A stretch of DNA of 64,000 nucleotides, taken from contig JADFYE010000005.1 in assembly GCA_015233195.1 (NCBI GenBank), forward strand, positions 12,122-76,121, written 5' to 3'. Made by a program: the position numbers and the translations under genes. The notes beneath the pieces were generated by a model, which saw nothing but the letters and a program-made list of their open reading frames with translations, searched no databases and was not told where the DNA came from. Positions 1 through 19,626 of the stretch are shown piece by piece (positions within the stretch are counted from its first letter, which is position 1; each line of letters starts with the position of its first letter). Source of the DNA: Candidatus Omnitrophota bacterium. GTDB lineage: Bacteria; Omnitrophota; Gorgyraeia; Zapsychrales; Zapsychraceae.

Positions 1-514
1 CCGTATTCCCTGCGATCAAAGCCGGTGCCATTTTCCAGGCAGTCATGATCATAGGATAATTCCAGGGAATAACTGCCGCGATCACACCGATCGGTTCACG
101 CTCGATCAAACTTCTAACCGGTGCCGGAATATCTAATTCTTTAGAACTTAGCCATTTTTCAACGCCTGCAAAAAAATCAAATGTTTCAGCTGCAGTAGGC
201 ACATCAATTAAATTAGCATGCTTAATCGTCTTACCCACATCCGCGCATTCCAAACGCGCTAATTCAAAAGCATTATCCCGAATAAGCTGGGAGATCTTTT
301 TCAAATACTCCCCACGCTGCTGGACAGATAACTTTGACCACTCCCCATTATCAAACTGCTCACGGGCACTATTAATCGCAGACTGCATATCAATCAAAGA
401 CGCAGAAGCGACTTTAGCAAACACCTCTCCGTTAGAAGGATTGATAGCATCAAACACCTTCCCGTCAGAAGCAGGAGTTAATTGACCATTAAAATATAAA
501 TTATATACTTTCAT
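1..514 (-). CDS. Aldehyde dehydrogenase family protein, N-terminal part (gene runs off the window start)
   Basis: Absent from the ORF track because truncated. Minus-strand translation from the ATG at 512-514 reads MKVYNLYFNGQLTPASDGKVFDAINPSNGEVFAKV...EREPIGVIAAVIPWNYPMIMTAWKMAPALIAGNT, carrying the ALDH-family PWNYP and K..PAL.AGN motifs. Confidence 0.8.
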   Translation of the reverse strand, partial: MKVYNLYFNGQLTPASDGKVFDAINPSNGEVFAKVASASLIDMQSAINSAREQFDNGEWSKLSVQQRGEYLKKISQLIRDNAFELARLECADVGKTIKHANLIDVPTAAETFDFFAGVEKWLSSKELDIPAPVRSLIEREPIGVIAAVIPWNYPMIMTAWKMAPALIAGNT

Positions 515-607: not shown

Positions 608-1642
608 CTATTCAACCGCCACCCTCGTCCAAAGTTCAAACACCCTCGAACACGGCGCATACCATTTAGAAATCTTCGCAAAATCCCCTTTTAAGACCAT
701 CTTCTTCTGGGTCGTAGCAACGAACGGATCCAACTCCCTCTTAAACACAGCCCGCCAAACCACCTCAGGAGCTGACGTCATAAATTCCGCGTTAGCGTTA
801 TTACCGAGATTAACAATCTTCCCCTTATCAAACGTAAAACTAAAAACTTCGCCAGTCTCATCCAACTTAACTGCCAATTCCATATTCATGTTCGTCTGAC
901 TACCAAGCTGTTTCATTTTTTCATCCGCATTTACTATATCGACAATAGCCTGCATATGCTCACGCGAAAAAAATTTCTTTTTGTCATCCTGTGCCTTTGT
1001 GCAATCATCCTGAGCGTTAACGAAGGATCTCTTTTTAGATTCTTCAGGCGCTATTGCTCCTTCAGAATGACAGCCTTGCTTAAAAACTTTAGCAATAGCT
1101 TCCGTCTTAATTGCTTCTTCCAAATTCTGGATCCAGCAAAAACAATCGAATAATTCCGGGCCGACCGCTAATACACCATGATTACGCAATACAGCCAATC
1201 CCTTACCTTTTAATTCAGCCAACACAGGTGAAATATCCTGTACGGTCGGAGAATACTGCTCAATCGCCTTAACTTCACCTAAATATAATTTCGCTTCAAA
1301 TATCCGAGGCACAAAAACCGGCTGTTCAATAAAAAAACCATTAACATACGGCGTATGCGTATGAATAATAGCTTTAACATCAGGAAAATTCTTATAGATC
1401 GCAGTATGAAGCATCTTTTCAGACGTGACTTTACCAGATTCCAAAGGATTCCCGTCATTATCACAAACCAAAAGATCTTTATCAATTAATCGTCCCAAGC
1501 AAGTTTTAGTTGCAGTTAAAATAATCCGTTTATCATCAACCCGGACGCTGATATTTCCATTCAATGCGCTCGCCAAATCCTTATCCCAAAGTAATTTACC
1601 AATCTCGATAATCTCATTTTTTAATTTTTTTATATTGTCCAT
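608..1642 (-). CDS. Class II aldolase/adducin-family protein (MtnB/Ald2-like) fused to a C-terminal SCP2 sterol-carrier domain
   Basis: The N-terminal ~200 aa carry GNISVR...HTHTPY...HGVLAVG aldolase-II motifs. A low-complexity linker follows, then a ~100-aa SCP2-like fold (ELAVKLDETGEVFSFTFDKGKIVNLGN...MVLKGDFAKISKWY). The likely real start is ATG 1640-1642 (MDNIKK), with GAGG 8 nt upstream. The ORF-track start at 1660 is a TTG. Confidence 0.75.
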   Translation of the reverse strand: MDNIKKLKNEIIEIGKLLWDKDLASALNGNISVRVDDKRIILTATKTCLGRLIDKDLLVCDNDGNPLESGKVTSEKMLHTAIYKNFPDVKAIIHTHTPYVNGFFIEQPVFVPRIFEAKLYLGEVKAIEQYSPTVQDISPVLAELKGKGLAVLRNHGVLAVGPELFDCFCWIQNLEEAIKTEAIAKVFKQGCHSEGAIAPEESKKRSFVNAQDDCTKAQDDKKKFFSREHMQAIVDIVNADEKMKQLGSQTNMNMELAVKLDETGEVFSFTFDKGKIVNLGNNANAEFMTSAPEVVWRAVFKRELDPFVATTQKKMVLKGDFAKISKWYAPCSRVFELWTRVAVE

Positions 1643-1653
1643 GATTTTAACCT

Positions 1654-2130
1654 CTAACAATTTATTAAATCATAATTTGGCACAAAAGTTTTTGTTTTCG
1701 ATTGTGCAATTTGTATATTATTAAATTTTAATAAAATACTTTTATCCACGTTAACAGCCAATGGCTTCTCTCCCTCAAAAATATAAAACGGCACATTATG
1801 CTCTTTTGCTAAAATCTGCAATATCGTACCACCAACCAAAGTTTTAAGCTGATCATTTACTTTCCCATGTCCCGATACCCAAACCTCTTTTACACAACCA
1901 TGCCCAAACAAAAACCCTGCCATATTATCCGCGATAACCGTAGGTGTTATTCCATGATGCAACAACTTCCGACACGTATGCTGACACGAAGTCAGATCCG
2001 GACGACCTTCTAAAACAAACACCTCGACAGCATCTTTTTTAAAGTGATCAAAAAAATTTTTACCAAAAAACCCGTGGAGCAAAACCACGCGTTTCTGTAA
2101 TTTTTCAACTATTGGATTGGCTAATTTCAT
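1654..2130 (-). CDS. Short eIF-2B/MtnA-family paralog (Rossmann-like C-terminal half only, catalytic motif degenerate)
   Basis: 158 aa that align to the C-terminal half of the adjacent MtnA-like protein (EGRPDLTSCQ...TVIADNMAGFLF...VWVSGHGKV...NVPFYIF versus ETRPYFQG...TLIADNAVGNVM...VIVGSDRNC...NIPFYVL). The ATG overlaps the upstream stop (ATGA). Confidence 0.5.
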   Translation of the reverse strand: MKLANPIVEKLQKRVVLLHGFFGKNFFDHFKKDAVEVFVLEGRPDLTSCQHTCRKLLHHGITPTVIADNMAGFLFGHGCVKEVWVSGHGKVNDQLKTLVGGTILQILAKEHNVPFYIFEGEKPLAVNVDKSILLKFNNIQIAQSKTKTFVPNYDLINC

Positions 2131-3957: not shown

Positions 3958-5451
3958 TTATAATTTTGTTTTATCAATTTTCCCCGTTCTATTCTTCGGT
4001 AATTCTTTCCTTACTTCAAAATTATGCGGCACTTTAAAATGCGCTAAATGTTCTTTCATAAATGCCCGAAGATCCTCGATCGCAACATTCTCACCTTCTT
4101 TAAATACCACAAACGCTTTAATAGTTTCTCCCCGTAATTTATCAGGAATTCCTATAACCGCGGCTTCCGCCACACTTGGATGTTTATATAACGCCGACTC
4201 CACTTCAGGCGCCATCACCAATTGACCGCCCACCTTGATCATTTCTTTTTTCCGTCCCATGATATATAAAAATCCGTTCTCATCAAAACGACCCAGATCG
4301 CCCGTATATAAACCGTCTTTTCGTTTAATCTCTGCAGTCAACTCAGGATCTTTGTAATATTCTTTCATGATATAATCGCCTGCAATCACAATCTCACCCA
4401 CAGCGCCTTGCGGCAATTCTTTTCCCTCATCGCTCACGATCCTGATCGTCGAAAAAGGCGACGGTTTCCCCACACTCGCGATATTATCGCTATTCTTCAA
4501 AGGCGTTACTGTATTAGGCGGACACGTTTCAGTCATGCCCCATCCGTTCAACAATACCGCATTCGGACAATATTGATGAAACCTTGCTAAAATTTCTGGC
4601 GAGCTTGGCGCGCCGAATACTACCACCCAGCGCAAAGACGACAAATCAAAATTTTCAATGTGTTTCAAAGTAAGAATCGCGTTATACATAGGCGGCACAA
4701 TATGAAAACATGTTACTTTAAACTGCTGAACCAATTCCAAAAACTGCATAGGATTAAAACGATCCATCAATACCAAAGTAATCCCAAATAAAAGCATATT
4801 TTGAATATAAATTAACCCAGCGATATGGCTCAAAGGTAAGGCACAAAGTTTGATATCTTTATCCGTTAGGTCAACAAAGTATTCCATTGCCTTAGGCGAG
4901 CCGTCTAAATGTTTATATGTCAATAAAATGCCTTTAGGTTTTCCAGTTGTCCCCGACGTATACATAATAAGCGCAGGATCGGAATCTTTAATTTCCACTG
5001 ATAATGCGACAGCAGAAGATTTTGCCATTAATTCGCCGTATTTCAGCGAGCCTTCAACATTTCCATCCAGCAAAATAATTTTTTTAAGTTTCGGCAATTG
5101 CTTACATACAGCATTCAAATCAACATCTGGTCGTCCCAACGCAATCAATACCTTGGCTTCCGAGTGGCTCAAACACGAAACCAGTTCATCTTCTTTCAAC
5201 ATAAAGTCCAGCGGCACGCCAACTCCACCCAAACAAAATACAGTCAGATAACTAAACACATACTGCGGACAATTAGGCAAATAAATACCAACAGCATCGC
5301 CTTTTCCAATCCCCTGTGTTCGTAACACATTGGTAAGCCTCAAAACCTGATCTTGTAACTGCGCAAAATTAATTACCTGATCTTTAAATATCAAAGCAGG
5401 TTTGGACGCGTATTTCTTTGCTTGTGCGGTTAAAATATCATTGATTTTCAT
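3958..5451 (-). CDS. AMP-dependent acyl-CoA synthetase/ligase (long-chain-fatty-acid--CoA ligase-like)
   Basis: 497 aa with the AMP-binding motif YTSGTTGKPKG and a C-terminal GRKKEMIKVGG...LPKNRTGKIDK. Confidence 0.85.
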   Translation of the reverse strand: MKINDILTAQAKKYASKPALIFKDQVINFAQLQDQVLRLTNVLRTQGIGKGDAVGIYLPNCPQYVFSYLTVFCLGGVGVPLDFMLKEDELVSCLSHSEAKVLIALGRPDVDLNAVCKQLPKLKKIILLDGNVEGSLKYGELMAKSSAVALSVEIKDSDPALIMYTSGTTGKPKGILLTYKHLDGSPKAMEYFVDLTDKDIKLCALPLSHIAGLIYIQNMLLFGITLVLMDRFNPMQFLELVQQFKVTCFHIVPPMYNAILTLKHIENFDLSSLRWVVVFGAPSSPEILARFHQYCPNAVLLNGWGMTETCPPNTVTPLKNSDNIASVGKPSPFSTIRIVSDEGKELPQGAVGEIVIAGDYIMKEYYKDPELTAEIKRKDGLYTGDLGRFDENGFLYIMGRKKEMIKVGGQLVMAPEVESALYKHPSVAEAAVIGIPDKLRGETIKAFVVFKEGENVAIEDLRAFMKEHLAHFKVPHNFEVRKELPKNRTGKIDKTKL

Positions 5452-5759: not shown

Positions 5760-7061
5760 TTATCTAAAACTTAGGTCAGTAGGCGCGCGGCCCAATTCCT
5801 GCAGTAAAATTTTGGCAGATTCAATCTGAGCATCTAAAGACTCATGTTGATGCGCCCTTCCAGGATAAATTTCATATAAAGGTCGTTTTTCCAAAGGTGT
5901 TACATTAAGCATCATTGAATTAGCTCCAGATAAAAACGCCAAACGGCGCGCAGTCATATCCAAAGTTTCAAGACCAGTAGTTACTAATATTTTTACATGA
6001 GGCAATAAAAAAAATCTGGCAGATGATAGAGTATGAATTATTTCATCAACTGTAGGTGCTGGATGTTTTGCTAACGGAGTATATGGATGAGGCAAAAACG
6101 GTCCCATACTTAACATTTCAACATTCAGCTCCCCTGCTAATTCTATATCACTACTTATATCAGCATGAGTCTGCCCAGGCAAACCTATCAAAGACCCAGT
6201 AATTATTAAATACCCCAATTCATTCGCAGTTTTCAGATCTTGTAATCGGTCTTCAAACTTTGAACCAGGATGCATCTTAGAATATAAATCTGAATTTGAA
6301 GTTTCAAACCGCAACAATAACCCCCTAGCACCTGCAGCGTATAAACGTTTTAAACCATCCGTACCAACTTCGCCAAAACTAATAAAAATTAAAACTCCAA
6401 AACGTTTTTTTATCTCAGCAACAAGGTCAATAAGCTCATCAATCGGACGACCACGGTCTTCACCGCTTTGCAATACCAGCGCTTTAAACCCATAAACCTC
6501 AACCGCAATTCGCACAGACTCCAATATCTCGTCTTTAGACATTCGATATCTGGTTAAACTAGTATTCAATGCCGAAATCCCACAATAATGACAAACCTGG
6601 TCACACTCATTGCCAATTTCGATTATCCCATGCACGCAGCAAGAATTACCGTGATACTGATGTCTCAAATGATGTGCCGCGTTTTTAATAAACTCACGTT
6701 CACCAGCATCTTTCGCAGATAATAAATATTCCAATTCCTCTCGCAATATCCGTCCACCTGCAGCAACTTTATCATACATATCCCGGACTTTTGTATATTT
6801 CGCTCCAGCCCAAGGCATTTGTTTTACGCTAGCATCGTCAATATCTTTTAACTCAAAAAAAAGATCTTTCCATGTCTCTAGAGTTGTTTCAGCCTCTTTC
6901 TGACTTACCCGAGTTATAACAAAACCACCTTGTGCATATACATAATCGCCCACGCTTAATCCAGTTAACTCATTAATGGCTTTCTTCTCTTCGCCAAAAT
7001 AATCAACCAAAGCAAATTTACCTTCAAATGCTTTAACTTTTCCAGGAATAGCGTAACACAT
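5760..7061 (-). CDS. Fusion protein: N-terminal HypC/HupF-like [NiFe] hydrogenase maturation domain plus radical SAM domain (HydE/BioB/PylB-like)
   Basis: The N-terminus MCYAIPGKVKAF...VGDYVYAQGGFVITRVSQKEAETTLETWKDL is HypC-like, including the essential Cys2. Then come a CxxxCxxC cluster (CDQVCHYCG), LVLQSGED, ETSNSDLYSKMHPGSKFEDRL and GSLIGLPGQT, as in HydE/BioB-type radical SAM enzymes. GGAG lies 7 nt upstream of the ATG. Confidence 0.75.
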   Translation of the reverse strand: MCYAIPGKVKAFEGKFALVDYFGEEKKAINELTGLSVGDYVYAQGGFVITRVSQKEAETTLETWKDLFFELKDIDDASVKQMPWAGAKYTKVRDMYDKVAAGGRILREELEYLLSAKDAGEREFIKNAAHHLRHQYHGNSCCVHGIIEIGNECDQVCHYCGISALNTSLTRYRMSKDEILESVRIAVEVYGFKALVLQSGEDRGRPIDELIDLVAEIKKRFGVLIFISFGEVGTDGLKRLYAAGARGLLLRFETSNSDLYSKMHPGSKFEDRLQDLKTANELGYLIITGSLIGLPGQTHADISSDIELAGELNVEMLSMGPFLPHPYTPLAKHPAPTVDEIIHTLSSARFFLLPHVKILVTTGLETLDMTARRLAFLSGANSMMLNVTPLEKRPLYEIYPGRAHQHESLDAQIESAKILLQELGRAPTDLSFR

Positions 7062-7078
7062 TTAATGCTCCAGAATTA

Positions 7079-7414
7079 TTATACGATCTCTGTGATAAAA
7101 AATTCTTTTCCAGAAGGGAGTAGCGTGCCAAGCTTACGGCACTGAGGACACTGAAGATCAGAACCTTTTTTAGGATATTGAATATTACACGTCTTGCATT
7201 CTAGCAAAGCAGGCTTGAATTTCACTTCTAAAACAGTATTAGATAACACAGTATCAGCTATCATTTGTTCCCAATATAATCTGATACATCCCTCATCAAA
7301 ACCTAGCAATTCTCCTACGATCAAAACCGCTTTTTTAGGGTGTGGAATATTTTTATCTTTGACCGCTGCTAAAGCTTCAGCTACGACTTTCTGGACTTGA
7401 TGAACCTCATGCAT
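7079..7414 (-). CDS. hypA: Hydrogenase nickel-insertion protein HypA
   Basis: Starts MHEVHQV... and has two CxxC pairs (CKTC...CPQC). The ATG overlaps the echF stop by 8 nt. Confidence 0.8.
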   Translation of the reverse strand: MHEVHQVQKVVAEALAAVKDKNIPHPKKAVLIVGELLGFDEGCIRLYWEQMIADTVLSNTVLEVKFKPALLECKTCNIQYPKKGSDLQCPQCRKLGTLLPSGKEFFITEIV

Positions 7415-7742
7415 GGAACACGTCCTTATACCGTTTTTCAGAACAAGCAGCATATTTAGTATCCAGCACTAAACATTTTTTCGGACAAATTTCTACACAA
7501 GCATTACAGGATACACAACGCAGCCGGTCGATCTCCCAGCCTTTTTGTTCTTTAGTTACTACTATCGCTGCTGTCGGACATTTACGTTGACATAAGCCGC
7601 AGAAAATACATTTATCAATCTCGATTAAAACTTTACCACGAGTGCCAACAAAATATTTTTTCTCAACAAAAGGATATCTTTCAGTAACTGGACGACTGAA
7701 AAGATTGGATAACACTGATTTTGCCATTACTAATAATTTCAT
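7407..7742 (-). CDS. echF: Ech hydrogenase subunit F (2x[4Fe-4S] ferredoxin, NuoI-like)
   Basis: 111 aa with two CxxCxxCxxxCP motifs (CIFCGLCQRKCP, CVSCNACVEICP). Confidence 0.8.
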   Translation of the reverse strand: MKLLVMAKSVLSNLFSRPVTERYPFVEKKYFVGTRGKVLIEIDKCIFCGLCQRKCPTAAIVVTKEQKGWEIDRLRCVSCNACVEICPKKCLVLDTKYAACSEKRYKDVFHA

Positions 7743-7745
7743 ATA

Positions 7746-8825
7746 TTACCTCTCCGCACAGCTGATACAAGGATCAATAGTCAATACTAATATAGGAACA
7801 TCCGCCAACTGACATCCTTTCAGAATTTCCAACAAAGGCGTAATATTAGCGAATGTCGGAGTCCTGACTCTAAGCCTTTGCAAAAATTTAGTGCCATTAG
7901 CTTTAGCATAATAAATAACTTCACCGCGCGGCTGTTCAGAACGCGCAAAAAATTCTCCGTTCGGGAAACCAGTAACCTTAGCCTCAATTACGCCTTCTTT
8001 CATTTGTTGGACACATTTTTCAATTATATCAATTGATTGCGCCAACTCACGAATACGAACTTTACAACGGCTATAACAATCTCCCTCCGTCTCAACTATA
8101 GGCGCAAACCCAATCTTGCCATAAGCAGCATAGCCCATCATACGGATATCCATTGCTACTCCGCTGGCTCTAAGCATTGGACCTACCGCACCTAACGCCT
8201 TAGCATTTTCAGTAGTTAAAATTCCAACGCCCTGGGTACGATGTTTTACTGTGGTATCATCTAAAAATACCATACCCAGATCATTAATCTTTTTTTGGTA
8301 AACCCGTAATTTTTTAACAATCTCTTCTAATTTAGCCGGCGCAATATCCCGACGCACGCCTCCGACTTTAGCCGAACCAAAAATAACCCGACCCCCAGTG
8401 GTCTCTTCAATTATATCCAAAATATATTCGCGGATTTTCCAAGATTCCATGAAAAGACTTTCAAAACCAAACCCGTCAGCAGTCAAACCTAACCAAAGTA
8501 AATGACTATGTATACGGGAAAGCTCAGACCAGATAGTACGTAAATATTGCGCGCGTTCTGGCACTTCAATCTTCATCAACTCTTCCACTGCCATACAATA
8601 AGTAAGACCATGGATAAAACTGCATATGCCGCAGATACGTTCTGCCACATATGTATATTCTTGAAAATCTTTTTTCTCAACCAATTTTTCCAACCCACGA
8701 TGAATAAATCCTATGGACGGTATAGCTTCAACCACTTTCTCATCTTCCAAAACCAAATCCAAATGTATTGGCTCTGGAAGTACTGGATGCTGAGGACCAA
8801 AAGGAATGATCGTCCGTTTACTCAT
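7746..8825 (-). CDS. echE: Group 4 [NiFe] hydrogenase large subunit (EchE, NuoD-like)
   Basis: The N-terminal RICGICSFIHGL and C-terminal DPCISCAER motifs are the Ni-Fe ligand sites. The start was taken at MSKRTIIPFGPQHP, avoiding a 70-nt overlap with echD. Confidence 0.85.
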   Translation of the reverse strand: MSKRTIIPFGPQHPVLPEPIHLDLVLEDEKVVEAIPSIGFIHRGLEKLVEKKDFQEYTYVAERICGICSFIHGLTYCMAVEELMKIEVPERAQYLRTIWSELSRIHSHLLWLGLTADGFGFESLFMESWKIREYILDIIEETTGGRVIFGSAKVGGVRRDIAPAKLEEIVKKLRVYQKKINDLGMVFLDDTTVKHRTQGVGILTTENAKALGAVGPMLRASGVAMDIRMMGYAAYGKIGFAPIVETEGDCYSRCKVRIRELAQSIDIIEKCVQQMKEGVIEAKVTGFPNGEFFARSEQPRGEVIYYAKANGTKFLQRLRVRTPTFANITPLLEILKGCQLADVPILVLTIDPCISCAER

Positions 8826-9189
8826 GGCTCGTCTCCTTTGGTTTCTCGTCTTGATTGAACGCGTGTTTGATTCCTGTACGATAAAATTCACCTTTATAAT
8901 CCACTGCTATATTCTCCACTTTAACATCAAACAAATCATGAATTTCATTTTCATAAAGAAAAGCACTCAAATATACAGCGCTGATACTTGGCACTGGAGT
9001 TGACGTATCTTTAAGAATTATTTTAAAACTTTGATACACATAATCTTTATCAAAAGAATATTGTAACTCCAAACATTCAGGCAATTTGGTGCAACAAATC
9101 TGTACTAAACGCCAGCCTTCATATTTTAATTCACGAACTTTTGCCAAAAGGCTATCCAAAGTTATCTCCACTATAGTTTGCTGTATCAT
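8818..9189 (-). CDS. echD: Ech hydrogenase subunit D (NuoC-like 30-kDa subunit)
   Basis: 123 aa similar to NuoC, placed between the small and large subunit genes with 4-8 nt overlaps. Confidence 0.7.
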   Translation of the reverse strand: MIQQTIVEITLDSLLAKVRELKYEGWRLVQICCTKLPECLELQYSFDKDYVYQSFKIILKDTSTPVPSISAVYLSAFLYENEIHDLFDVKVENIAVDYKGEFYRTGIKHAFNQDEKPKETSHE

Positions 9190-9629
9190 TTTTTCACCTC
9201 TTCAGCCAGGCTTGCCGCCTTTTTTTTCTCTAAAATTCCCAATGCTTTTACTACCGCATCAATAAGTGCTTCTGGTCTTATTGGACACGAAGGAGCATAA
9301 ACATCAACTGGAACAACTTTATCTGCCCCGCCCAAAACATTATAACATTCCCTAAATACCCCGCCTGAAGTTGCGCATATACCAACTGCTATCACTACTT
9401 TAGGATTCGGCATCTGGTTATAAATATTTTGTACTACTGGTTTGTTTTGCTCATTTATCGACCCAGTCAATAAAAGTATATCCGCATGTTTTGGGTTACC
9501 CGTATTAATTACCCCAAAACGTTCTACGTCATACCTAGGCATCAAGGATGCTAAAACTTCAATATCACAGCCATTACAACTTGATCCATCATAATGAATT
9601 ATCCACGGTGATTTTGATAAAACACTCAT
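9186..9629 (-). CDS. echC: Group 4 [NiFe] hydrogenase small subunit (EchC, NuoB-like)
   Basis: Carries the proximal-cluster motifs CNGCD, GICATSGG and APSCPIRPE. Confidence 0.85.
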   Translation of the reverse strand: MSVLSKSPWIIHYDGSSCNGCDIEVLASLMPRYDVERFGVINTGNPKHADILLLTGSINEQNKPVVQNIYNQMPNPKVVIAVGICATSGGVFRECYNVLGGADKVVPVDVYAPSCPIRPEALIDAVVKALGILEKKKAASLAEEVKK

Positions 9630-9630
9630 A

Positions 9631-10500
9631 TTAACCCCTTATCATAAGATAAATAATATTCGCTCCGCCTAAAACTAAAGCCACTAACCAAGAACTTGCA
9701 ACCAAAGCTTGCCATCTTACTCTGGCAGTAGCATTATCAATTAACATTTGAGATAAAAATACTAACAATGACACGCTTAAACCCACCCAAACATTCGAAG
9801 CAAAAAATAAATAAACAATAGCTAAAACAAAAACATTTTCATACCAATGCGCCATTTCAATAATCGCTAAAGTCTTACCTGAAAACTCAGTAGTAATCCC
9901 TTTTACTAATTCTTGGTGAGCATGATGAGAAGTGGAAAGATCAAACGGAGATTTACGAAACTTAATTGGTAAAATAAAAAAGAAAGCTAGAAAAACGCCA
10001 GGCAAAACCATAATTAAAGATTTTGGATAATGAATTATATCTGTGATTTGAAAACTTTTAGTAACCATGTACATGCCAACTGCAACCATCATTAAAGCTG
10101 GTTCATATGACATCATTTGCAAAGCTTCCCTATGCGCGCCAATAACGCTATAAGGTGAACTGGCTTTAAAACCACCTAACACAAAAAATACTCCGGCTAA
10201 AGTTAATGCAAATATGATAAGTAAAAGATCTCCGCCTGCAAAAAATAATGCTCCAGTAAATACTGTCAGAACAAAAAAGAATTCTATATACAAAGTTTGT
10301 GAAGGACGCACCACCAAAGTTTCCTTTTTAAATAATTTAAGCACATCATAAAAAGGCTGTAATATCGGAGGTCCGATCCGATTCTGCATACGTGCTGTTA
10401 CTCTTCGATCCAGACCAGCTAATAACCCGCCTACGATTGGTGCTAAAACTAAATATGAAAGTAATATCTTAATTGACATATTACGCTCCCCCCAAAACAA
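9631..10500 (-). CDS. echB: Ech hydrogenase membrane subunit B (NuoH-like)
   Basis: 289 aa, polytopic and hydrophobic, in the operon position of EchB. Confidence 0.7.
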   Translation of the reverse strand: MFWGERNMSIKILLSYLVLAPIVGGLLAGLDRRVTARMQNRIGPPILQPFYDVLKLFKKETLVVRPSQTLYIEFFFVLTVFTGALFFAGGDLLLIIFALTLAGVFFVLGGFKASSPYSVIGAHREALQMMSYEPALMMVAVGMYMVTKSFQITDIIHYPKSLIMVLPGVFLAFFFILPIKFRKSPFDLSTSHHAHQELVKGITTEFSGKTLAIIEMAHWYENVFVLAIVYLFFASNVWVGLSVSLLVFLSQMLIDNATARVRWQALVASSWLVALVLGGANIIYLMIRG

Positions 10501-12373
10501 ATAATCCCAAGACGAACAATACGCCTAAGATCACGCCCAAATACATGAGCCGTTCCTCATTAAAATAATCATTTAAATAATAATTTTTCATTTCCATATC
10601 TTTAACTTCTAAAGCAGCTTGATATTGACCCTTGTGCCCTACATTTGCCCCAGCTAAATACGGATCAGATAATTTAACCCCGCTTCCATAATCTAAAAAT
10701 GTCAATGGGAACAAACATACCATTAAAAGCATAATACCCATAATAACAATATTTCCTTTACTTAATACCATCACGTTTCCGTATATCGCTGCAACATATG
10801 GATCAATTAAATTATGTGCCACCCAGGCAAAAAATCCGCATATAAAAACCGTTAATACTGACAATGTTCCCATTGCAATCCATTGACCAGTAGGTATACC
10901 TTTTTCAATATTCTCATATGGTTTATCTACTATTAAAACTTTGCCTAACCACTTCACCCAGAAAAATAAAGTAGCTGCACTACCAAAAATCAAAAATACC
11001 GCTGAAAAAGGACTAAAATCTATCATCGCCCGTAATACTGCCCATTTACTTATAAGCATACCAAACGGCGCTAAAAACATACCTGCAATTCCAATCTGCA
11101 ACATAACTGAAACCTTTGGCATACGCACAATCAAACCTGTCATATCTTCAACCTGACGGCTTCCGGTTTCATGCTCAATACCGCCCACGCATAAAAACAA
11201 AAGCCCCTTAGCAACCGCATGGAAAATTATCAATAAAATACCTGCCCAAACCGCTTCGTATGTTCCAACGCCCGCGCATAAAATTATTAAACCTAAGTTA
11301 GCTATAGTAGAATATGCCAATATTTTTTTAGCGTCATTTTGACTAATACAAATAAATGATCCAATCAAAAATGTAATTAACCCGACCATAGCAACAAACA
11401 AACCTAAAGTTGTACCCTGTAATTGATGAGCAAAACGTAATACCAAATAAACACCCGCCTTTACCATCGTACTAGAGTGAAGCAATGCTGAAACAGGCGT
11501 AGGCGCTACCATTGCCCCGACCAGCCATGAAGAACAAGGTAATTGTGCTGATTTAGTTAACCCAGCAAAACATAACAAAGCTACAGGCAATAAAACTAAA
11601 GTACCAGGTAAACTCATCATCTCATTTAACGCAATAGTGTGATGGGTCTTAAACAGCACGATTATTCCGATCAAAAAAGCTAAACCACCCAACAAATTCC
11701 ATCGTAACGCTAAAAATGAATTTGCAATGGATTGGTCATCTTGTTTATAACCAATCAAAATAAATGAGCAAACTGTTGTTATCTCCCAGAAAAATAATAA
11801 CCACATCAAATTATTAGAGAAGCAAACCCCAAACATCGCAGAAAGGAAAATAAAAATGAGACCTAGAAACAGCGGTCTTCTATCTTTTACTTCTTCATGA
11901 TGAGCATGAAAATCTTCCATATATCCTACTGCATACATGGCTATCAAACTTCCGATCACGCCGATAATCAAGCCCATGATCACTGAAAATAGATCAATAA
12001 ACAAATTGTTCTCTACATGCGCTGAATGACCAGCCCCAAAATGGAACCATAATAAAAGTCCGGTTTGAACAGCAATTAAAATTGAAACAATCATATCTTT
12101 ACGTCTTAACGCCAAAAATAAAATATAAGCCGCAAGCAAAACCTCAATAATCAACATAAAAGGCTCAATCCAACTAAAATGAGCAGGAACAAAGATTGGT
12201 GAACCTTTAAGCCCAATAGCTAAAAGTCCAATCGACACCACAATTAAAACTATAACCCCAGGATAAATAAATTTCTTAAATAAAGACGACCAACGGTTGA
12301 CCAAAGCTAAAGCGCCTATTAATAAAGGGAAAAGCATTAAGAAATACAGCAAGAACGGAACGTGGTTTTGCAT
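10481..12373 (-). CDS. echA: Ech hydrogenase membrane subunit A (NuoL/MnhA-like antiporter subunit)
   Basis: 630 aa with about 16 predicted helices and NuoL-type motifs. First gene of the echABCDEF operon. Confidence 0.75.
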   Translation of the reverse strand: MQNHVPFLLYFLMLFPLLIGALALVNRWSSLFKKFIYPGVIVLIVVSIGLLAIGLKGSPIFVPAHFSWIEPFMLIIEVLLAAYILFLALRRKDMIVSILIAVQTGLLLWFHFGAGHSAHVENNLFIDLFSVIMGLIIGVIGSLIAMYAVGYMEDFHAHHEEVKDRRPLFLGLIFIFLSAMFGVCFSNNLMWLLFFWEITTVCSFILIGYKQDDQSIANSFLALRWNLLGGLAFLIGIIVLFKTHHTIALNEMMSLPGTLVLLPVALLCFAGLTKSAQLPCSSWLVGAMVAPTPVSALLHSSTMVKAGVYLVLRFAHQLQGTTLGLFVAMVGLITFLIGSFICISQNDAKKILAYSTIANLGLIILCAGVGTYEAVWAGILLIIFHAVAKGLLFLCVGGIEHETGSRQVEDMTGLIVRMPKVSVMLQIGIAGMFLAPFGMLISKWAVLRAMIDFSPFSAVFLIFGSAATLFFWVKWLGKVLIVDKPYENIEKGIPTGQWIAMGTLSVLTVFICGFFAWVAHNLIDPYVAAIYGNVMVLSKGNIVIMGIMLLMVCLFPLTFLDYGSGVKLSDPYLAGANVGHKGQYQAALEVKDMEMKNYYLNDYFNEERLMYLGVILGVLFVLGLFVLGGA

Positions 12374-12442
12374 TTTTTATTTGCGGTTAAAAACGCACCT
12401 TTCAAATTAATAATTCAAATTAATAAGCACTATTAAAACTCA

Positions 12443-12569
12443 AGCTTTGAAGTTTATATTCTACAAAAAATATCAAAAGACGCAATAACAAAATTGTAAA
12501 TTAATAAACTTCCTTAGTTTAACCAGAACTAACTAATTTTAACAGCAAAAAAGCTTAAACTTCAAAACT
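12443..12569. repeat. Inverted-repeat pair flanking the ech operon promoter region and overlapping the padR stop
   Basis: AAGCTTTGAAGTTTA (12442-12456) and AAGCTTAAACTTCAAAAC (12551-12568) lie about 110 bp apart. The shared core TGAAGTTTA / TAAACTTCA matches 13 of 14 positions in reverse complement. Confidence 0.4.
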
Positions 12570-13073
12570 CTTAAGTAATCTGACTAAAGAATTAATCTCC
12601 GCCTCCACCAAATCAAGATCATGTTGAAGGATTATCTGCAAATGTTGACGAACATCTAAAGCCGAACGATTTAACTTGTTTAATTCTGTTCTAATCCGCT
12701 TAAGAACCAAAATCCTGCCCCGCAATTTTCGTTTAGCAGTCTTTTTATCAATATATTGCAGAAAATATAAGGATAAATCAAAATGAAAATATGGTCGTTC
12801 AACAGTTAAAAAACTTTCAGTTGCCAAACGGTCAAAAACTTTAGCGCCTTGTGAAGTCAGGCTATAAACATATTTTTCCGGGAATTTTCCTGAACGGTCA
12901 GTTTCCTTTTCAATCAAACCGTATTTTTCCATTTGCTTCAATGGATAATAAATGGATTTGATCTTTAACCCTAATAACGGTCCAAGCTCCTCTTCAATTA
13001 TACGCTTGATTTCATAACCGTGTTTAGGTCCATCCTTTAGCAACCCTAAAAATAAAAATTCATTTTCAATCAT
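12555..13073 (-). CDS. PadR-family transcriptional regulator
   Basis: FLFLGLLKDGPKHGYEIKRIIEEELG is a PadR winged-helix signature. Confidence 0.8.
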   Translation of the reverse strand: MIENEFLFLGLLKDGPKHGYEIKRIIEEELGPLLGLKIKSIYYPLKQMEKYGLIEKETDRSGKFPEKYVYSLTSQGAKVFDRLATESFLTVERPYFHFDLSLYFLQYIDKKTAKRKLRGRILVLKRIRTELNKLNRSALDVRQHLQIILQHDLDLVEAEINSLVRLLKSFEV

Positions 13074-13075
13074 AA

Positions 13076-14110
13076 TTATAAGATCAATTGCTGAGATCGT
13101 TCCGTGTAATCAATTATTTTTGCCATCATATCAATGGTTTCAACCGGATATTTGCCAACTGCGGTCTCACCTGAAAGCATTACCGCATCCGCACCGTCTA
13201 AAATTGCATTAGCCACATCAGATACTTCAGCCCGGGTTGGTCGATTATTTTCAGTCATAGTTTCAAGCATCTGAGTCGCAACTATCACAAATTTTTTATT
13301 CCGATTACATCTGCGTATAATATATTTCTGCATAATCGGAACTTGATATATCGGCAAACTTACCCCCATATCTCCTCTTGCAACCATTATCCCGTCACAA
13401 GCATCAATAATATCATCCACATTACGGATACCATCCAAATTTTCAATCTTTGATATTATTTTACAATCAGGCAATATTGGTCTAACTTTTTTTACCACAT
13501 GCAATATGTCTGCTGCATTGCGTACAAAAGATTGAGCGATCATATCAACTTTGTTTGCAATACCAAATTTAATGTCTTTTTTATCTTTTGCAGTAAACGT
13601 CTCCTGTTTCAATTTAAGACCAGGGATGTTTATACCTTTGCGGGATTTAAGGGAACCACCTTCACAAACTAAAACTTTTATCCGCTGTGAGTCTCGTTCC
13701 TTAACTTTCAAACAAATCCGTCCATCGTCAATAAAAATATTTGATCCAACTGGTATATCTTTGGCCGAACCCGTATAATCAAAAAAAATCTCTCCGGAGT
13801 TTTTAACTTTATCATTAGTCAAATAAACAATTGCGCCCAATTTTAGCTCAATTGGTTTATCCAAATGTCCAATACGAATCCGATAACCTTCAAGGTCCTG
13901 TAATATCTTTATTTGAAATTTATATCTGCCATTGATCTTTCGTACCAAATCAATCGCACCTTGATGCTGCTCATACGAACCATGTGAAAAATTTAAACGT
14001 ACAATATTAAGTCCCTTACGCGCCATCCGTACCAAAACATCTTCTGATAATGATGCTGGTCCTAAAGTAGCTATGATATTAGTATCCCTGGTTTGAACCT
14101 TTGCTTTCAT
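13076..14110 (-). CDS. pyk: Pyruvate kinase, short form (A and B domains only, no C-terminal allosteric domain)
   Basis: [10 protein letters not shown]...RLNFSHGS...MVARGDMG motifs in 344 aa. Typical pyruvate kinases are about 470 aa. Confidence 0.8.
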
Positions 14111-14119
14111 GGTATATCC

Positions 14120-14608
14120 CTATTTTACAGACGTATATTGCTTATCCAACAAACTAAAAATCATTTGTGCAGCCTTATCCCGGGCACGAGTGCTTAATGA
14201 AGTGACTTGGATTTTTATTTCATTTGTACGCGCAAATTTTGTAAAAAACACGCCTACTTCAGTAGTGTCAACTTGCCCAGGCACATCCATAAAAACTATT
14301 ATTCCCCTTAATCTGTCATCAATAAAAACCGAATACGGTCCATAAACTTTCTTATTGGGATCACTTTTATCTTTTAATAAAGGGTTATTCGATTTCACAT
14401 CTAATTTTAATTCTTGAGCAACTTGGGTGAGTGTTAAAACCGTATCATAACAATCGTCATAATTACAAGTATACACTTTAGACAAAGCCTTAAGATGTGC
14501 AGGGGATAAATGTTCAGTTGAAGTTCCCCAAACTTTACGTCCCGATTCCTGAACAAAAGAACAACCCGCCGCAAATACACATAACCCAATTAATAATATT
14601 TTTTTCAT
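14120..14608 (-). CDS. Lipoprotein, function unknown
   Basis: Signal peptide with the lipobox LIGLCVFAAGCS. Confidence 0.6.
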   Translation of the reverse strand: MKKILLIGLCVFAAGCSFVQESGRKVWGTSTEHLSPAHLKALSKVYTCNYDDCYDTVLTLTQVAQELKLDVKSNNPLLKDKSDPNKKVYGPYSVFIDDRLRGIIVFMDVPGQVDTTEVGVFFTKFARTNEIKIQVTSLSTRARDKAAQMIFSLLDKQYTSVK

Positions 14609-14663
14609 ATCATCTCCTTTAAAAGGGCACGAAGTATCGTGCCCCTACAACCTTGTCCACTTA

Positions 14664-15131
14664 TTATCCATACACATATGTCGCATTTAAAATATCATGC
14701 CGCCCTATAACGCCTATGATTTTCCCCTCCTGCATGACCGGCAAAAAATGAATATGCCACTTTATAACAATATCCAACATTTCTCGTAAGGTAGTGGTCG
14801 GAGCTATAGTTATTATGGTCTTCGACATTATCTCTAAAATAGGTAAATTTTTTGTCTTTTCTAAATGTTCATGTAAAGATTTATTCCGCTCATCATTTAC
14901 TCCCTGTTCTACCTGACGCGCGACTTTATCCAAAAGTATAAACAGATCAGTTAATGTTACAATACCAACTAGTTCTTTGTTCTCATTCACAACCGGAACC
15001 CCGCTGACTATTGACCTTAACATCAAATGCGCGACCTGACCAATAAGCATATCCGGCTTTACTGAGATAACACTTTCACTCATTATATCTTTGGCAAGTA
15101 TTTGATCTAAATTTAATTGATCATCTGACAT
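14664..15131 (-). CDS. CBS-domain pair protein
   Basis: Two CBS repeats (VISVKPDMLIGQVAHLM and TIITIAPTTTLREMLDIVIKWHIHFLPV). Confidence 0.7.
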   Translation of the reverse strand: MSDDQLNLDQILAKDIMSESVISVKPDMLIGQVAHLMLRSIVSGVPVVNENKELVGIVTLTDLFILLDKVARQVEQGVNDERNKSLHEHLEKTKNLPILEIMSKTIITIAPTTTLREMLDIVIKWHIHFLPVMQEGKIIGVIGRHDILNATYVYG

Positions 15132-15137
15132 AAAGAG

Positions 15138-17418: not shown

Positions 17419-17439
17419 ATATACCTTCTTTTTGAATTC

Positions 17440-18054
17440 TTACTTTATTACTTCTACTGCCCGCTGGCGTTCTTCTTCCGCCAATATCCACTTTGCCAAA
17501 TTCTGCCCCATATTCCGAGCCATTTTTGCCCAATCACCTTTTTTTATCGAAACACTTTGAGTATCTTTAAATATAAACACAGTTTTTCCAGTCTCTACTT
17601 CTTTTAATTTTCCCTCCAGAGTCAATGTCATATTCTTTCGACGTAAAATATGACGTTGAAAAAATGAAGGTGTATCCATGGCATCAATAGTACCGGAAAT
17701 ATTAAAATTCGGCTTTAAATCTTTATCCGAAAATATTAAATCTATCTTAGACTTTTCAAATTCTTTGCCTTGTGATTCATACACATCCATGAATCCGCGG
17801 ACTATCATTACAGAAACAGTATCTGACTCTGGACCAGCCGAAACTTCTGTTCCAGGTAAAAACGGCATTATCATTAAATTCCCGCCTTTACGCAGCAATT
17901 CAGTATCAATAATTTTTGTTTCTTTAAGATAAGTCGGCAAATAAGAAACTTCAACAGCAGAAACTGCCGGCTTCTTTTTTAATTTTAGAGCATGACTGCA
18001 TCCAGAAGCTGAAAACAGTACTAATATAATTAATACTAAAATATAAGATTTCAT
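17440..18054 (-). CDS. Lipoprotein, function unknown
   Basis: Signal peptide with the lipobox LFSASGCS. Confidence 0.55.
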   Translation of the reverse strand: MKSYILVLIILVLFSASGCSHALKLKKKPAVSAVEVSYLPTYLKETKIIDTELLRKGGNLMIMPFLPGTEVSAGPESDTVSVMIVRGFMDVYESQGKEFEKSKIDLIFSDKDLKPNFNISGTIDAMDTPSFFQRHILRRKNMTLTLEGKLKEVETGKTVFIFKDTQSVSIKKGDWAKMARNMGQNLAKWILAEEERQRAVEVIK

Positions 18055-18131
18055 AATGCGATGATTCTAACACACGCATTTTTACGGCTCAAGGTAATAT
18101 TTATTTTTGATATAGGCGAATGATTAAATAA

Positions 18132-19625: not shown

Positions 19626-19626
19626 A

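Follow-up and report, generated by a model that had tools for sequence, protein, structure and literature searches.

The gene described here encodes a fusion of a class II aldolase/adducin-type domain with an SCP2-fold domain. It lies close to the start of the window, the 64,000-nucleotide stretch of DNA from a Candidatus Omnitrophota bacterium (Table 1). The open reading frame spans 608..1660 on the minus strand; a GAGG Shine-Dalgarno sequence precedes the start ATG at 1642, and translation ends at a TAG stop at 608-610. The plus-strand reading of 608-1642 is riddled with stops, which places the gene on the minus strand. A deposited entry, P0001, named 'class II aldolase/adducin family protein [Candidatus Omnitrophica bacterium]', matches the product at 100% identity. 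The initial annotation had called both a class II aldolase and an SCP2 domain in this protein, and both calls are borne out by Pfam, by the domain matches of homologues, by an AF2 model and by Foldseek.

Table 1. Features of the aldolase-SCP2 locus (window coordinates)
Feature	Position	Strand	Basis or remark
Aldehyde dehydrogenase (ALDH), NAD(P)-dependent, 5' part (171 codons)	1..514	minus	cut by window start; ATG 514-512
Aldolase-linker-SCP2 fusion gene, 344 aa	608..1642	minus	stop codon 608-610; ORF list and translation
SCP2-fold domain, residues 222-344	611..979	minus	PF02036, AF2, Foldseek
Disordered, charged, hypervariable linker, residues 193-221	980..1066	minus	pLDDT, identity, alignment
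Class II aldolase/adducin-type catalytic domain, residues 1-192	1067..1642	minus	Pfam PF00596, PDB matches, Foldseek
Truncated IF-2B/MtnA-like protein, 158 aa	1654..2130	minus	Pfam IF-2B 8.2e-12, profile positions 130-213 only
MtnA-like isomerase (5-methylthio-/5-deoxy-ribose-1-phosphate isomerase family), 325 aa	2127..3104	minus	TIGR00524, MtnA models, PDB
Nucleoside phosphorylase, DeoD/uridine-phosphorylase (PNP_UDP_1) type, 249 aa	3108..3857	minus	Pfam PNP_UDP_1 1.6e-28
AMP-forming acyl-CoA ligase, 497 aa, first cassette gene	3958..5451	minus	Pfam AMP-binding 8.9e-89 and AMP-binding_C

Gene order and spread of the fusion

The fusion gene is part of a cluster that counts at least 12 genes. 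The cassette itself has a near-invariant order: acyl-CoA ligase, nucleoside phosphorylase, MtnA-like isomerase, truncated isomerase-like protein, aldolase-SCP2 and ALDH. The cassette genes are closely packed or overlapping; no terminator-like site was found between the cassette genes of the window, and promoter and terminator scans stayed at background level. The region downstream of the window, taken from orthologous loci, continues with a B12 radical-SAM enzyme and then a KS/CLF/ACP/cyclase (type II PKS-like) set. Synteny was counted in evaluable species-level genomes, 51 upstream and 42 downstream of the fusion. On the upstream side, the truncated isomerase-like gene is present directly next to the fusion in 51/51, as is the ligase within the cassette (51/51), with phosphorylase and isomerase each found in 50/51. 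Downstream, ALDH, ApbA, KS and a CLF-like KS each occur in 42/42, ACP in 40/42 and the B12 radical-SAM gene in 38/42. Neighbours of the same kinds accompany divergent fusions, namely the phosphorylase (L090), the truncated IF-2B protein (L089), the AMP-ligase (L086) and ApbA (L088). At a further locus, L093, where the aldolase is 35% identical, the set of radical-SAM enzyme, phosphorylase, isomerase, short isomerase, aldolase and ALDH is complete and KS/CLF genes are absent. By linking the breakdown of nucleosides with synthesis of a polyketide type, the cluster gives a hint of a pathway not yet described. A published KS-CLF catalogue names Candidatus Omnitrophica in passing.

The MtnA-like isomerase scores 190.6 bits against the TIGR00524 (eIF-2B_rel) cut-off of 185.85 and 206-215 bits with MtnA models, matches methylthioribose-1-phosphate isomerases in the PDB at ~1e-41, and keeps the catalytic Cys of the THCN motif and the catalytic Asp of the GSDR motif. 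Aligned to this full-length paralogue, the truncated protein corresponds to the C-terminal half of the isomerase fold alone; it is devoid of the catalytic Cys region, its catalytic Asp is substituted, and it is probably a non-catalytic partner subunit. Its gene stops 11 nt before the aldolase ATG; overlap of the two genes is seen in other genomes and also in two divergent lineages. The nucleoside phosphorylase falls under every NCBIfam cut-off and matches uridine phosphorylase, DeoD PNPs and the Sulfolobus MTA phosphorylase 1jds (1.3e-13) in the PDB. For the ligase, the best NCBIfam model of an orthologue is the long-chain-fatty-acid-CoA ligase PRK06187 (444 bits versus a cut-off of 476), and the best PDB matches are FadD5, feruloyl- and 4-coumarate-CoA ligases and FadD13; judged from these matches, its likeness is to CoA ligases for long-chain and aryl acids and not to acetyl-CoA synthetase. 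The ALDH part within the window is 58% identical over 171 aa to a full-length Aldedh orthologue (locus L001) that is BADH/ALDH1-2-like and non-acylating.

An apparent fusion could arise from a sequencing error or frameshift that removed a stop codon in the linker. This origin is rejected, as at least 120 full-length homologues exist, the best 120 of which are all fusions of 330-367 aa covering 98-100% of the query, and relatives of the C-domain occur, with the same gene context, in 145 species-representative genomes, nearly all labelled Omnitrophota. These counts give an estimate of how often the architecture appears in public genomes, and the fusion is genuine. The initial annotation knew of no SCP2 domain described with a sugar-phosphate aldolase, which agrees with our searches: a full-text search for 'class II aldolase' together with 'SCP2' gave no paper, a broader search for an SCP2 domain with an aldolase returned nothing relevant, and the DHAP-shunt papers PMC6079011 and PMC6302742 make no mention of SCP2. 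Likewise, nothing relevant was found in the literature on Omnitrophota, aldolase and radical SAM, the Omnitrophota genome papers examined do not mention the cluster, and no solved structure recovered by Foldseek joins class II aldolase and SCP2 folds.

The aldolase domain, the linker and the SCP2 domain

The N-terminal domain belongs to the Aldolase_II family (PF00596, residues 10-180, 6.9e-35, 121 bits versus a gathering cut-off of 22.2). Its predicted metal ligands are H94, H96, H155 and E75, which on the basis of alignment and established knowledge of FucA we take to be the equivalents of FucA His92/His94/His155/Glu73. Predicted phosphate-site residues are G29-N30-x-S32, T43 and S/T73-74. 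Among 31 close homologues, the metal ligands, G29-N30-x-S32 and S/T73-74 are invariant or nearly so, and E116 is a further invariant residue of the domain; G29, N30, S32, E75, H94, H96 and H155 are also invariant in 14 divergent fusions of 27-42% identity. The closest solved relative by sequence is Aquifex aq_1979 (2irp), and the PDB sequence matches to 2irp and FucA span residues 8-189 only. In Foldseek (E 2e-13 to 1e-9), the model has the alpha/beta fold of FucA-like aldolases, matching fuculose-1-phosphate aldolases with target-normalised TM scores of 0.74-0.84 and DrdA (6btd/6btg) with 0.75-0.78. A homotetramer with active sites at subunit interfaces is characteristic of this family; the model here is of a monomer.

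Assignment to a characterised equivalog was attempted with NCBIfam and failed in each case, the cut-offs for MtnB, FucA, AraD, OtnC and ribulose-1-phosphate aldolase all being missed. The MtnB model TIGR03328 gives 59.2 bits against a cut-off of 137.05 and covers residues 11-98 only, the MtnB model PRK09220 gives 66.7 bits against 226, and FucA TIGR01086 gives 34 bits against 400.25. The best score, 91.9 bits against a cut-off of 250, belongs to the archaeal FucA_Meth. Because these cut-offs are missed, the substrate and reaction type rest on gene context, and their assignment is a prediction.

The charged linker that had been proposed from the letters of the sequence is borne out and is flexible as modelled: residues 194-218 have pLDDT <50 in the AF2 monomer, and mean pairwise identity among 120 homologues drops to 9%, with a length that varies in the alignment. 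The tether comprises 25-60 residues and starts at the last helix of the aldolase domain. With a pTM of 0.56, the AF2 monomer places the two domains relative to each other without confidence.

Detection of the SCP2 domain by Pfam is borderline, but model and homologues agree on its identity. PF02036 matches residues 256-326 at 21.1 bits in the whole protein and at 22.0 bits when the domain is searched by itself, versus a gathering score of 21.3; 18/18 homologue C-domains match PF02036 (best 6.1e-8), and a precomputed match exists for roughly half of the 120 homologues. Modelled by AF2, the C-domain (pLDDT 91.5) shows the SCP2 alpha/beta fold of N-terminal helices, a five-stranded sheet and C-terminal helices, and in Foldseek the top 46 PDB matches (E <1e-3) are all SCP2 proteins or SCP2-like domains, with TM up to 0.85; its neighbours are sterol/fatty-acid carriers, alkylsulfatase C-domains and UbiJ. 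The model and these matches rule out a different fold for the C-terminal region, and as modelled residues 222-344 are a genuine SCP2 fold. Thus, the domain identity given by the initial annotation stands, but its proposed start near residue 245 does not: the domain begins at about 222, and two N-terminal helices, residues 227-250, are part of the fold.

Conservation is distributed unevenly over the protein. Mean pairwise identity among the 120 homologues is 75% for the SCP2 domain and 84% for its C-terminal half versus 63% for the aldolase domain, which indicates tighter constraint on the SCP2 domain than on the catalytic one. Within the SCP2 domain lies the near-invariant block DPFVATTQKKMxLxGDFAKISKWYAPCSRxFELW. 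SCP2 folds bind long hydrophobic ligands. Near-invariance over 35 residues is unusual for a generic lipid-binding SCP2 domain, and a protein-protein interface fits at least as well. A stand-alone SCP2 relative (P0196) has no aldolase gene adjoining and thus lends no independent support.

Predicted route and alternative explanations

The reading that we favour, with a probability of about one half, is that the aldolase cleaves a 5-substituted 5-deoxy-D-ribulose-1-phosphate in a route resembling the DHAP shunt, with the SCP2 domain serving as a hydrophobic pocket, a docking surface or both; substrate class, flux direction and SCP2 role are inferred. The nucleoside phosphorylase and the MtnA-like isomerase would convert a nucleoside to a 5-substituted ketose-1-phosphate, which the metal-dependent N-terminal domain would split into dihydroxyacetone phosphate (DHAP) and an aldehyde. 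ALDH, encoded by the downstream gene, would oxidize the aldehyde to an acid, and the acyl-CoA ligase, encoded by the first gene, would convert the acid to a CoA ester; such a route would follow DHAP-shunt logic with two further steps. In most Omnitrophota, the cassette genes adjoin those for the B12 radical-SAM enzyme and for the KS/CLF/ACP/cyclase system, which could then use up the activated acid. Aldol cleavage is preferred over MtnB-type dehydration because neither an enolase-phosphatase nor an acireductone dioxygenase family was found among the Pfam-annotated neighbours of three loci. The order of phosphorylase, isomerase and class II aldolase is experimentally established for 5-deoxyribose salvage, and the same logic has been noted for fluoroacetaldehyde formation (PMC6079011).

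In the DHAP-shunt-like route, the probable task of the SCP2 domain is to hold a non-polar group or to dock a partner. It may hold the non-polar end of the substrate or of the aldehyde product; alternatively, it may bind the dehydrogenase or the truncated isomerase-like protein, which is translationally coupled to the aldolase. The effect would be that the reactive aldehyde is handed on, not released. Transfer of the aldehyde to the neighbouring dehydrogenase had been suggested at the outset, and the presence of ALDH directly downstream in 42/42 evaluable genomes fits this idea. Sequestration of a volatile C2 aldehyde, suggested alongside it, is a less likely role. The known DHAP-shunt aldehydes, acetaldehyde and 2-methylthioacetaldehyde, are small and would have no need of an SCP2 pocket, so that either the substrate differs here or the SCP2 domain acts otherwise.

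A doubtful alternative turns the cassette into a biosynthetic C2 extension derived from SAM. The B12 radical-SAM enzyme would adenosylate a hydrophobic acceptor; the phosphorylase would strip the adenine, and isomerase and aldolase-SCP2, with the acceptor held by the SCP2 domain, would trim the ribose down to acceptor-CH2-CHO, from which ALDH and ligase would make an acceptor-CH2-CO-SCoA starter for KS/CLF/ACP. Related chemistry is known, in that HpnH attaches a 5'-deoxyadenosyl group to diploptene and MqnE to a chorismate derivative, with the related HpnG and MqnB removing adenine. This scheme gives a role to every conserved gene, among them those for the radical-SAM enzyme and the ligase of long-chain/aryl type, and to the SCP2 domain as well; in 42/42 genomes, the KS/CLF cluster directly adjoins the cassette, and L093 holds radical-SAM enzyme, phosphorylase, both isomerases, aldolase-SCP2 and ALDH together. 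However, we know of no B12-binding radical-SAM enzyme that transfers an adenosyl group; the best-scoring models for the present enzyme, BchE and HpnJ, stay far under their cut-offs, and in 4/42 genomes the enzyme's gene does not adjoin the cassette. The phosphorylase, weakly similar to HpnG (1.3e-9) and futalosine hydrolase (4.6e-6), is much nearer DeoD and uridine phosphorylase, and the acceptor molecule is hypothetical. If true, the scheme would make SAM a donor of C2 (carboxymethyl) units in a new way and provide polyketide starters from a new source, both conserved across a candidate phylum, and the cassette would be biosynthetic, not a salvage unit. The opposite case, which we consider unlikely, is plain by-product disposal: an ordinary DHAP shunt for 5'-deoxyadenosine and/or methylthioadenosine would yield acetaldehyde or 2-methylthioacetaldehyde, then the acid and its CoA ester, with an SCP2 domain that sequesters the small aldehyde or is structural, aiding oligomerisation or solubility. 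Clusters of phosphorylase, isomerase and class II aldolase are established 5'-deoxynucleoside salvage units (PMC6079011), and PMC10986504 and PMC12632272 likewise present them as such. The radical-SAM gene, adjacent in 38/42 genomes, is a possible source of by-product, and radical-SAM enzymes are inhibited by 5'-deoxyadenosine (PMC6079011). Nevertheless, disposal leaves unexplained the retention of the SCP2 domain and its conservation above that of the catalytic domain, a long-chain/aryl-type ligase instead of acetyl-CoA synthetase, and the joining of the cassette to a KS/CLF/ACP/cyclase cluster across dozens of species; neither PMC6079011 nor PMC6302742 describes an SCP2 fusion.

Two further readings change the reaction or the substrate of the aldolase domain. 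The class II aldolase superfamily includes NovR, PhtC and pyruvic oxime dioxygenase. We judge it improbable that the domain is an MtnB-like dehydratase, epimerase, decarboxylase or oxygenase acting on a hydrophobic polyketide-related substrate presented by SCP2. Weaker PDB matches to NovR (4.9e-6) and TqaM (0.012), weaker Foldseek matches to pyruvic oxime dioxygenase and pyridine-dicarboxylate decarboxylase, and best NCBIfam scores that all lie under cut-off point in this direction; set against them are the invariant phosphate-site residues of sugar-phosphate aldolases, MtnB models that match residues 4-98 only at 59-67 bits (cut-offs 137-226), an aldehyde dehydrogenase as the product-side neighbour, and tight linkage to the phosphorylase and a catalytically intact MtnA-like isomerase, which predicts a ketose-1-phosphate substrate. 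Catabolism of nucleoside ribose, passing from ribose-1-phosphate through ribulose-1-phosphate to DHAP and glycolaldehyde and on to glycolate and glycolyl-CoA, appears highly improbable. Haloarchaeal pentose-bisphosphate metabolism has an analogous ribulose-1-phosphate aldolase step, and the phosphorylase here is of DeoD/uridine-phosphorylase rather than MTAP type. The aldolase does match the NCBIfam ribulose-1-phosphate aldolase model weakly (1.1e-11), but its 44.6 bits are far under the cut-off of 300; the isomerase is MtnA-like, reaching only 115 bits with the ribose-1,5-bisphosphate isomerase model (cut-off 314), and glycolaldehyde is polar, which still leaves the SCP2 domain unexplained.

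Should the SCP2 domain bind a hydrophobic molecule, either substrate or product, the pathway would handle an undescribed nucleoside-derived compound and may supply an unusual polyketide-type starter; if it is a docking module, the protein would clearly exemplify the channelling of an aldehyde by a carrier domain on a tether. Known routes through phosphorylase, isomerase and class II aldolase process small SAM by-products with single-domain aldolases, whereas here a lipid-carrier fold is attached, and in an uncultured phylum, over far more than a hundred species, that fold is more conserved than the catalytic domain. Whichever role the SCP2 domain has, the cassette offers a concrete, testable entry into Omnitrophota metabolism, and the protein is a candidate aldolase for biocatalysis that would bring its own hydrophobic binding module.

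Relation to known systems

The adenosylhopane route, HpnH followed by HpnG, shares with the C2-extension scheme only its logic, the action of a radical-SAM enzyme and a PNP_UDP_1-family enzyme on a lipid-linked 5'-deoxyadenosine. The phosphorylase reaches 37.9 bits with the HpnG model (1.3e-9) versus a cut-off of 187, and membership in that family is unsupported. To our knowledge, HpnH has no B12-binding domain, and we know of no isomerase, aldolase or ALDH steps in hopanoid side-chain formation.

As in the fusion, a C-terminal SCP2 fold is attached to or stands beside an enzyme in SCPx thiolase, MFE-2 dehydrogenase/hydratase, the alkylsulfatases SdsA1/Pisa1 and UbiJ, and the C-domain model superposes on these structures with Foldseek E values of 1e-6 to 1e-4. 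These known partners act on lipids, long alkyl sulfates or polyprenyl quinones, whereas the partner here is a sugar-phosphate aldolase. The best structural match is the Thermus thermophilus SCP2 protein TT1886 (1wfr, 2cx7; E 6e-9, TM 0.83-0.85, rmsd 2.1-2.8 A, 18-20% identity), which is also the top, weak, profile-sequence PDB match to the C-domain (E 0.14). TT1886 is free-standing, with ~130 aa, and has neither an aldolase nor the Omnitrophota DPFVATTQKKM...WYAPCSR block.

The DHAP-shunt aldolases, DrdA of Bacillus thuringiensis and Ald2 of Rhodospirillum rubrum and ExPEC E. coli, have the same class II fold with a metal site of three His and one Glu. They likewise stand beside a 5'-deoxynucleoside phosphorylase (or kinase) and an MtnA-type isomerase, and yield the products predicted here, DHAP and an aldehyde (PMC6079011). 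Gene content places the Omnitrophota loci with such clusters: phosphorylase and isomerase are each present in 50/51, and three loci have no acireductone dioxygenase or enolase-phosphatase neighbours. By sequence, no close relationship to the characterised Ald2/DrdA is seen, the match to DrdA (6btd) reaching 5e-7 over residues 4-122 only. DrdA and Ald2 are single-domain proteins of ~200-215 aa without SCP2, as opposed to a fusion of 344 aa here, and their clusters as described consist of three genes and transporters, without the truncated isomerase paralogue, ALDH, ligase or KS/CLF cluster.

The fluoroacetate pathway of Streptomyces cattleya includes a fluoroacetaldehyde dehydrogenase step, the counterpart of the aldehyde oxidation proposed here. 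As summarised in PMC6079011 and PMC6302742, this pathway leads from SAM-derived 5'-fluorodeoxyadenosine to a substituted acetate, and its phosphorylase, MtnA-like isomerase and class II aldolase act in the same reaction order as proposed here. Unlike in S. cattleya, no SAM halogenase family occurs in the Pfam-annotated flanks of three Omnitrophota loci, and the aldolase of that species lacks an SCP2 domain. In S. cattleya, the route gives a toxin precursor, whereas the product proposed for the Omnitrophota cassette is a CoA-activated building block.

Domain architecture of the fusion protein

Plus-strand translation of positions 608–1642 is interrupted by stop codons throughout, which places the gene on the minus strand, within an open reading frame spanning 608..1660. 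An ATG at 1642, 8 nt downstream of GAGG, starts a 344-aa product. A protein deposited from a Candidatus Omnitrophica MAG as 'class II aldolase/adducin family protein' matches it with 100% identity; public entries for such proteins carry this name or 'L-fuculose-phosphate aldolase'. As the initial annotation had proposed, the N-terminal part is a class II aldolase fold (Pfam Aldolase_II, residues 10–180, 6.9e-35). Against solved structures, the full-length model matches in Foldseek through its aldolase half only, to fuculose-1-phosphate aldolases, Aquifex aq_1979, YgbL and DrdA (target-normalised TM 0.74–0.84), and neither fold nor sequence searches found a solved structure with both aldolase and SCP2 folds. 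Metal-site residues H94, H96, H155 and E75 are invariant in homologue alignments, as is the phosphate-site motif G29-N30-x-S32, with T43 and S/T73-74 nearly invariant among close homologues; from the alignment and general knowledge of FucA, we take these to correspond to the FucA site residues. Conservation of both sites points to a ketose-1-phosphate as the probable substrate. The protein reaches no NCBIfam equivalog cut-off: its best match is archaeal FucA_Meth (91.9 bits versus 250), MtnB models cover only the N-terminal half (59–67 bits versus 137–226), and FucA scores 34 bits against a cut-off of 400.

The Pfam match to SCP2 is borderline (residues 256–326, 21.1 bits versus a gathering score of 21.3). 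The isolated C-terminal region scores 22.0 bits, and the C-domains of 18/18 homologues match SCP2 (best 6.1e-8), with no competing family for any of them. AlphaFold2, run with a 31-sequence alignment, predicts two confident domains (mean pLDDT 86.4) separated by a segment with pLDDT <50 (residues 194–218). Modelled in isolation (pLDDT 91.5, pTM 0.82), the C-domain gives 46 Foldseek PDB matches with E <1e-3, all to SCP2 proteins or SCP2-like domains; Thermus thermophilus SCP2 leads (1wfr/2cx7; E 6e-9 and 1e-7, TM 0.83–0.85), and the remainder comprise Archaeoglobus AF1534, alkylsulfatase C-domains, UbiJ-SCP2 and SCP2 of animals, yeast and insects. The SCP2 identity first assigned thus stands; the start near residue 245 does not, because the modelled fold includes two N-terminal helices and begins near residue 222.

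Mean pairwise identity over 120 homologues is 63% in the aldolase domain, 9% in the linker, 75% in the SCP2 domain and 84% in its C-terminal half, where the block DPFVATTQKKMxLxGDFAKISKWYAPCSRxFELW is practically invariant. On this pattern the SCP2 domain is presumably no passive appendage: purifying selection appears to act more strongly on this tethered domain than on the catalytic one.

Distribution of the fusion

Among 5.8 billion protein clusters, 617 matched the fusion; the best 120 of these are all full-length (330–367 aa, query coverage 98–100%, identity 52–100%), which establishes a genuine fusion and not a sequencing artefact, and every one that carries a label is labelled Omnitrophota. 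With one genome scanned for each GTDB species, 145 genomes encode the C-domain, so the fusion is not rare. Labels of the 80 loci retrieved are overwhelmingly Omnitrophota, with some automated bins called 'uncultured Planctomycetales' and one 'archaeon'. A C-domain profile matched only 101 proteins among 1.84 billion representatives, nearly all of them 318–342-aa aldolase fusions or fragments thereof and the rest a few weak stand-alone SCP2 proteins, so that this SCP2 subfamily occurs as an aldolase fusion and essentially nowhere else. Divergent fusions (27–42% identical) retain the architecture and all catalytic residues. The representative search also returned P0143 (694 aa), in which a radical-SAM region at the N-terminus precedes the last two-thirds of an aldolase–SCP2 protein; this could be another fusion that arose naturally, or else an error of assembly or gene calling.

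Conserved gene neighbourhood

The cassette genes of the window are closely packed on one strand, with no terminator-like sites in their intergenic gaps. In the full-length MtnA-like isomerase the catalytic motifs THCN (Cys) and GSDR (Asp) are intact. Its truncated paralogue is limited to the C-terminal half of the isomerase fold: the region bearing the Cys is missing and, in alignment with the full-length protein, Gly-His stands where Asp-Arg is expected. Beyond the cassette, a 433-aa protein fuses a HupF/HypC hydrogenase-maturation domain (residues 1–64) to radical-SAM and BATS domains (HydE/BioB-like). Adjoining genes encode HypA, a two-cluster ferredoxin and the large subunit of a group-4, complex-I-like NiFe hydrogenase; NADH-dehydrogenase and antiporter-like membrane subunits come next.

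Coordinates of features in the window and in other loci
Locus	Feature	Position	Strand
Window	AMP-forming acyl-CoA ligase	5451-3958	minus
Window	PNP_UDP_1 nucleoside phosphorylase	3857-3108	minus
Window	MtnA-like isomerase	3104-2127	minus
Window	Truncated IF-2B/MtnA-like protein, 158 aa	2130-1654	minus
Window	Aldolase–SCP2	1642-608	minus
Window	Aldehyde dehydrogenase (ALDH), first 171 codons	514-1	minus
Window	HupF/HypC–radical-SAM–BATS fusion	5760-7061	minus
L001	Downstream cluster	10629-17014	
L048	Downstream cluster	11881-19124	
L029	Downstream cluster	17012-19626	
L093	Radical-SAM and cassette block	6473-12399	
L004	23S_rRNA_IVP-family genes	6951-7316, 8150-8530, 17804-18205	

Synteny was assessed by comparing the 13 translated genes of one orthologous locus with all retrieved loci; sufficient sequence was available upstream in 51 species genomes and downstream in 42. 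Upstream lie the ligase (51/51), phosphorylase (50/51), isomerase (50/51) and, directly adjacent, the truncated isomerase-like gene (51/51), often overlapping by 4–23 nt. The last is also paired with aldolase–SCP2 in two divergent lineages (L089, where the genes overlap, and L093), and its product looks like a non-catalytic partner subunit. Downstream are ALDH (42/42), a BchE/HpnJ-like B12-binding radical-SAM enzyme (38/42), a DUF2621-like 84-aa protein (42/42), an ApbA-type reductase (42/42), two ketosynthases (both 42/42) and an ACP (40/42). All the genes counted, upstream and downstream, keep one order and strand; an MFS transporter is sometimes present as well. The Cys-His-His triad is intact in the first ketosynthase; in the second, Arg and Asp replace triad residues, marking it as a predicted chain-length-factor-like partner (KS/CLF). 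A PF04199 cyclase, an SRPBCC polyketide cyclase, an SDR ketoreductase and a SnoaL-like protein follow, and together these genes form a type II PKS-like set, kept in ~40 Omnitrophota species. In L004, three small PF05635 genes lie between otherwise colinear cluster genes, an insertion seen in one genome.

The divergent locus L093 joins, in this order, the B12-binding radical-SAM enzyme, phosphorylase, isomerase, truncated isomerase, aldolase–SCP2 (35% identical) and ALDH in one block without KS/CLF genes, its products each 33–47% identical to their Omnitrophota counterparts. The radical-SAM enzyme would thus be part, with the nucleoside cassette, of a conserved, older core. Other divergent fusions neighbour a phosphorylase (L090), an AMP-ligase (L086) or a small protein and ApbA (L088); one is solitary (L087).

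A candidate pathway and the place of the SCP2 domain

[quoted passage not shown] Conversion of 5'-deoxyadenosine to DHAP and acetaldehyde by this route is experimentally established (PMC6079011), as is that of methylthioadenosine to DHAP and methylthioacetaldehyde (PMC6079011; PMC10986504, PMC12632272); the same order yields fluoroacetaldehyde from 5'-fluorodeoxyadenosine in Streptomyces cattleya (PMC6079011). We infer, with a probability of about 0.65, that aldolase–SCP2 performs the aldol cleavage in a pathway of this kind: the phosphorylase and then the isomerase would feed it, and cleavage would release DHAP and an aldehyde. The cassette would extend the known route by ALDH and the acyl-CoA ligase, suggesting that the aldehyde's carbon skeleton is retained and activated, not thrown away. 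The ALDH is of a generic, non-acylating kind, and the ligase most resembles CoA ligases of the long-chain fatty-acid, feruloyl and 4-coumaroyl types and not acetyl-CoA synthetase.

A C2 aldehyde fits uncomfortably with the SCP2 fold, its extreme conservation, the long-chain/aryl ligase and the fixed KS/CLF linkage, which together suggest a non-polar 5-substituent on the substrate or a docking and channelling function of the SCP2 domain. In FucA, a mobile C-terminal tail shuts over the active site. The flexible tether departs at this place, where the final helix of the aldolase domain ends, so that by analogy the aldehyde side of the pocket could lie within range of the SCP2 domain; in the full-length monomer model (pTM 0.56) inter-domain geometry is unreliable.

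Ordinary by-product disposal, with the SCP2 domain sequestering a small aldehyde, as the initial annotation had it, or purely structural, is simple, but it accounts for neither SCP2 conservation, ligase type nor PKS linkage, and we hold it to be unlikely. All genes would gain a role if the radical-SAM enzyme adenosylated a hydrophobic acceptor and the cassette trimmed the adenosine to a carboxymethyl group, a SAM-derived C2 extension priming KS/CLF. We find this doubtful: it requires chemistry that B12-binding radical-SAM enzymes, to our knowledge, are not known to perform, and their gene is not adjacent to the cassette in 4/42 genomes. The conserved phosphate site and isomerase linkage make another, non-aldolase chemistry of the superfamily distinctly improbable, and catabolism of ribose-1-phosphate to glycolaldehyde is very improbable. 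The original observation is confirmed in all three parts and its interpretation is partly supported.

Full-text searches found no paper combining a class II aldolase with SCP2, in line with the initial annotation, which was aware of no earlier description, and none that treats this cluster in Omnitrophota; a KS-CLF catalogue names Candidatus Omnitrophica as one of 14 phyla, with no further detail (PMC10132072). The genomic setting is new and highly conserved, and the architecture is real, common within one candidate phylum, not explained by the known pathway and open to direct testing. In the DHAP-shunt papers PMC6079011 and PMC6302742, the fusion partners mentioned for class II aldolase domains are limited to a HAD phosphatase (plant DEP1) and MtnD. 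Compared with the aldolases of that shunt, aldolase–SCP2 is probably of the same type, and adds a strongly constrained SCP2 module of its own.
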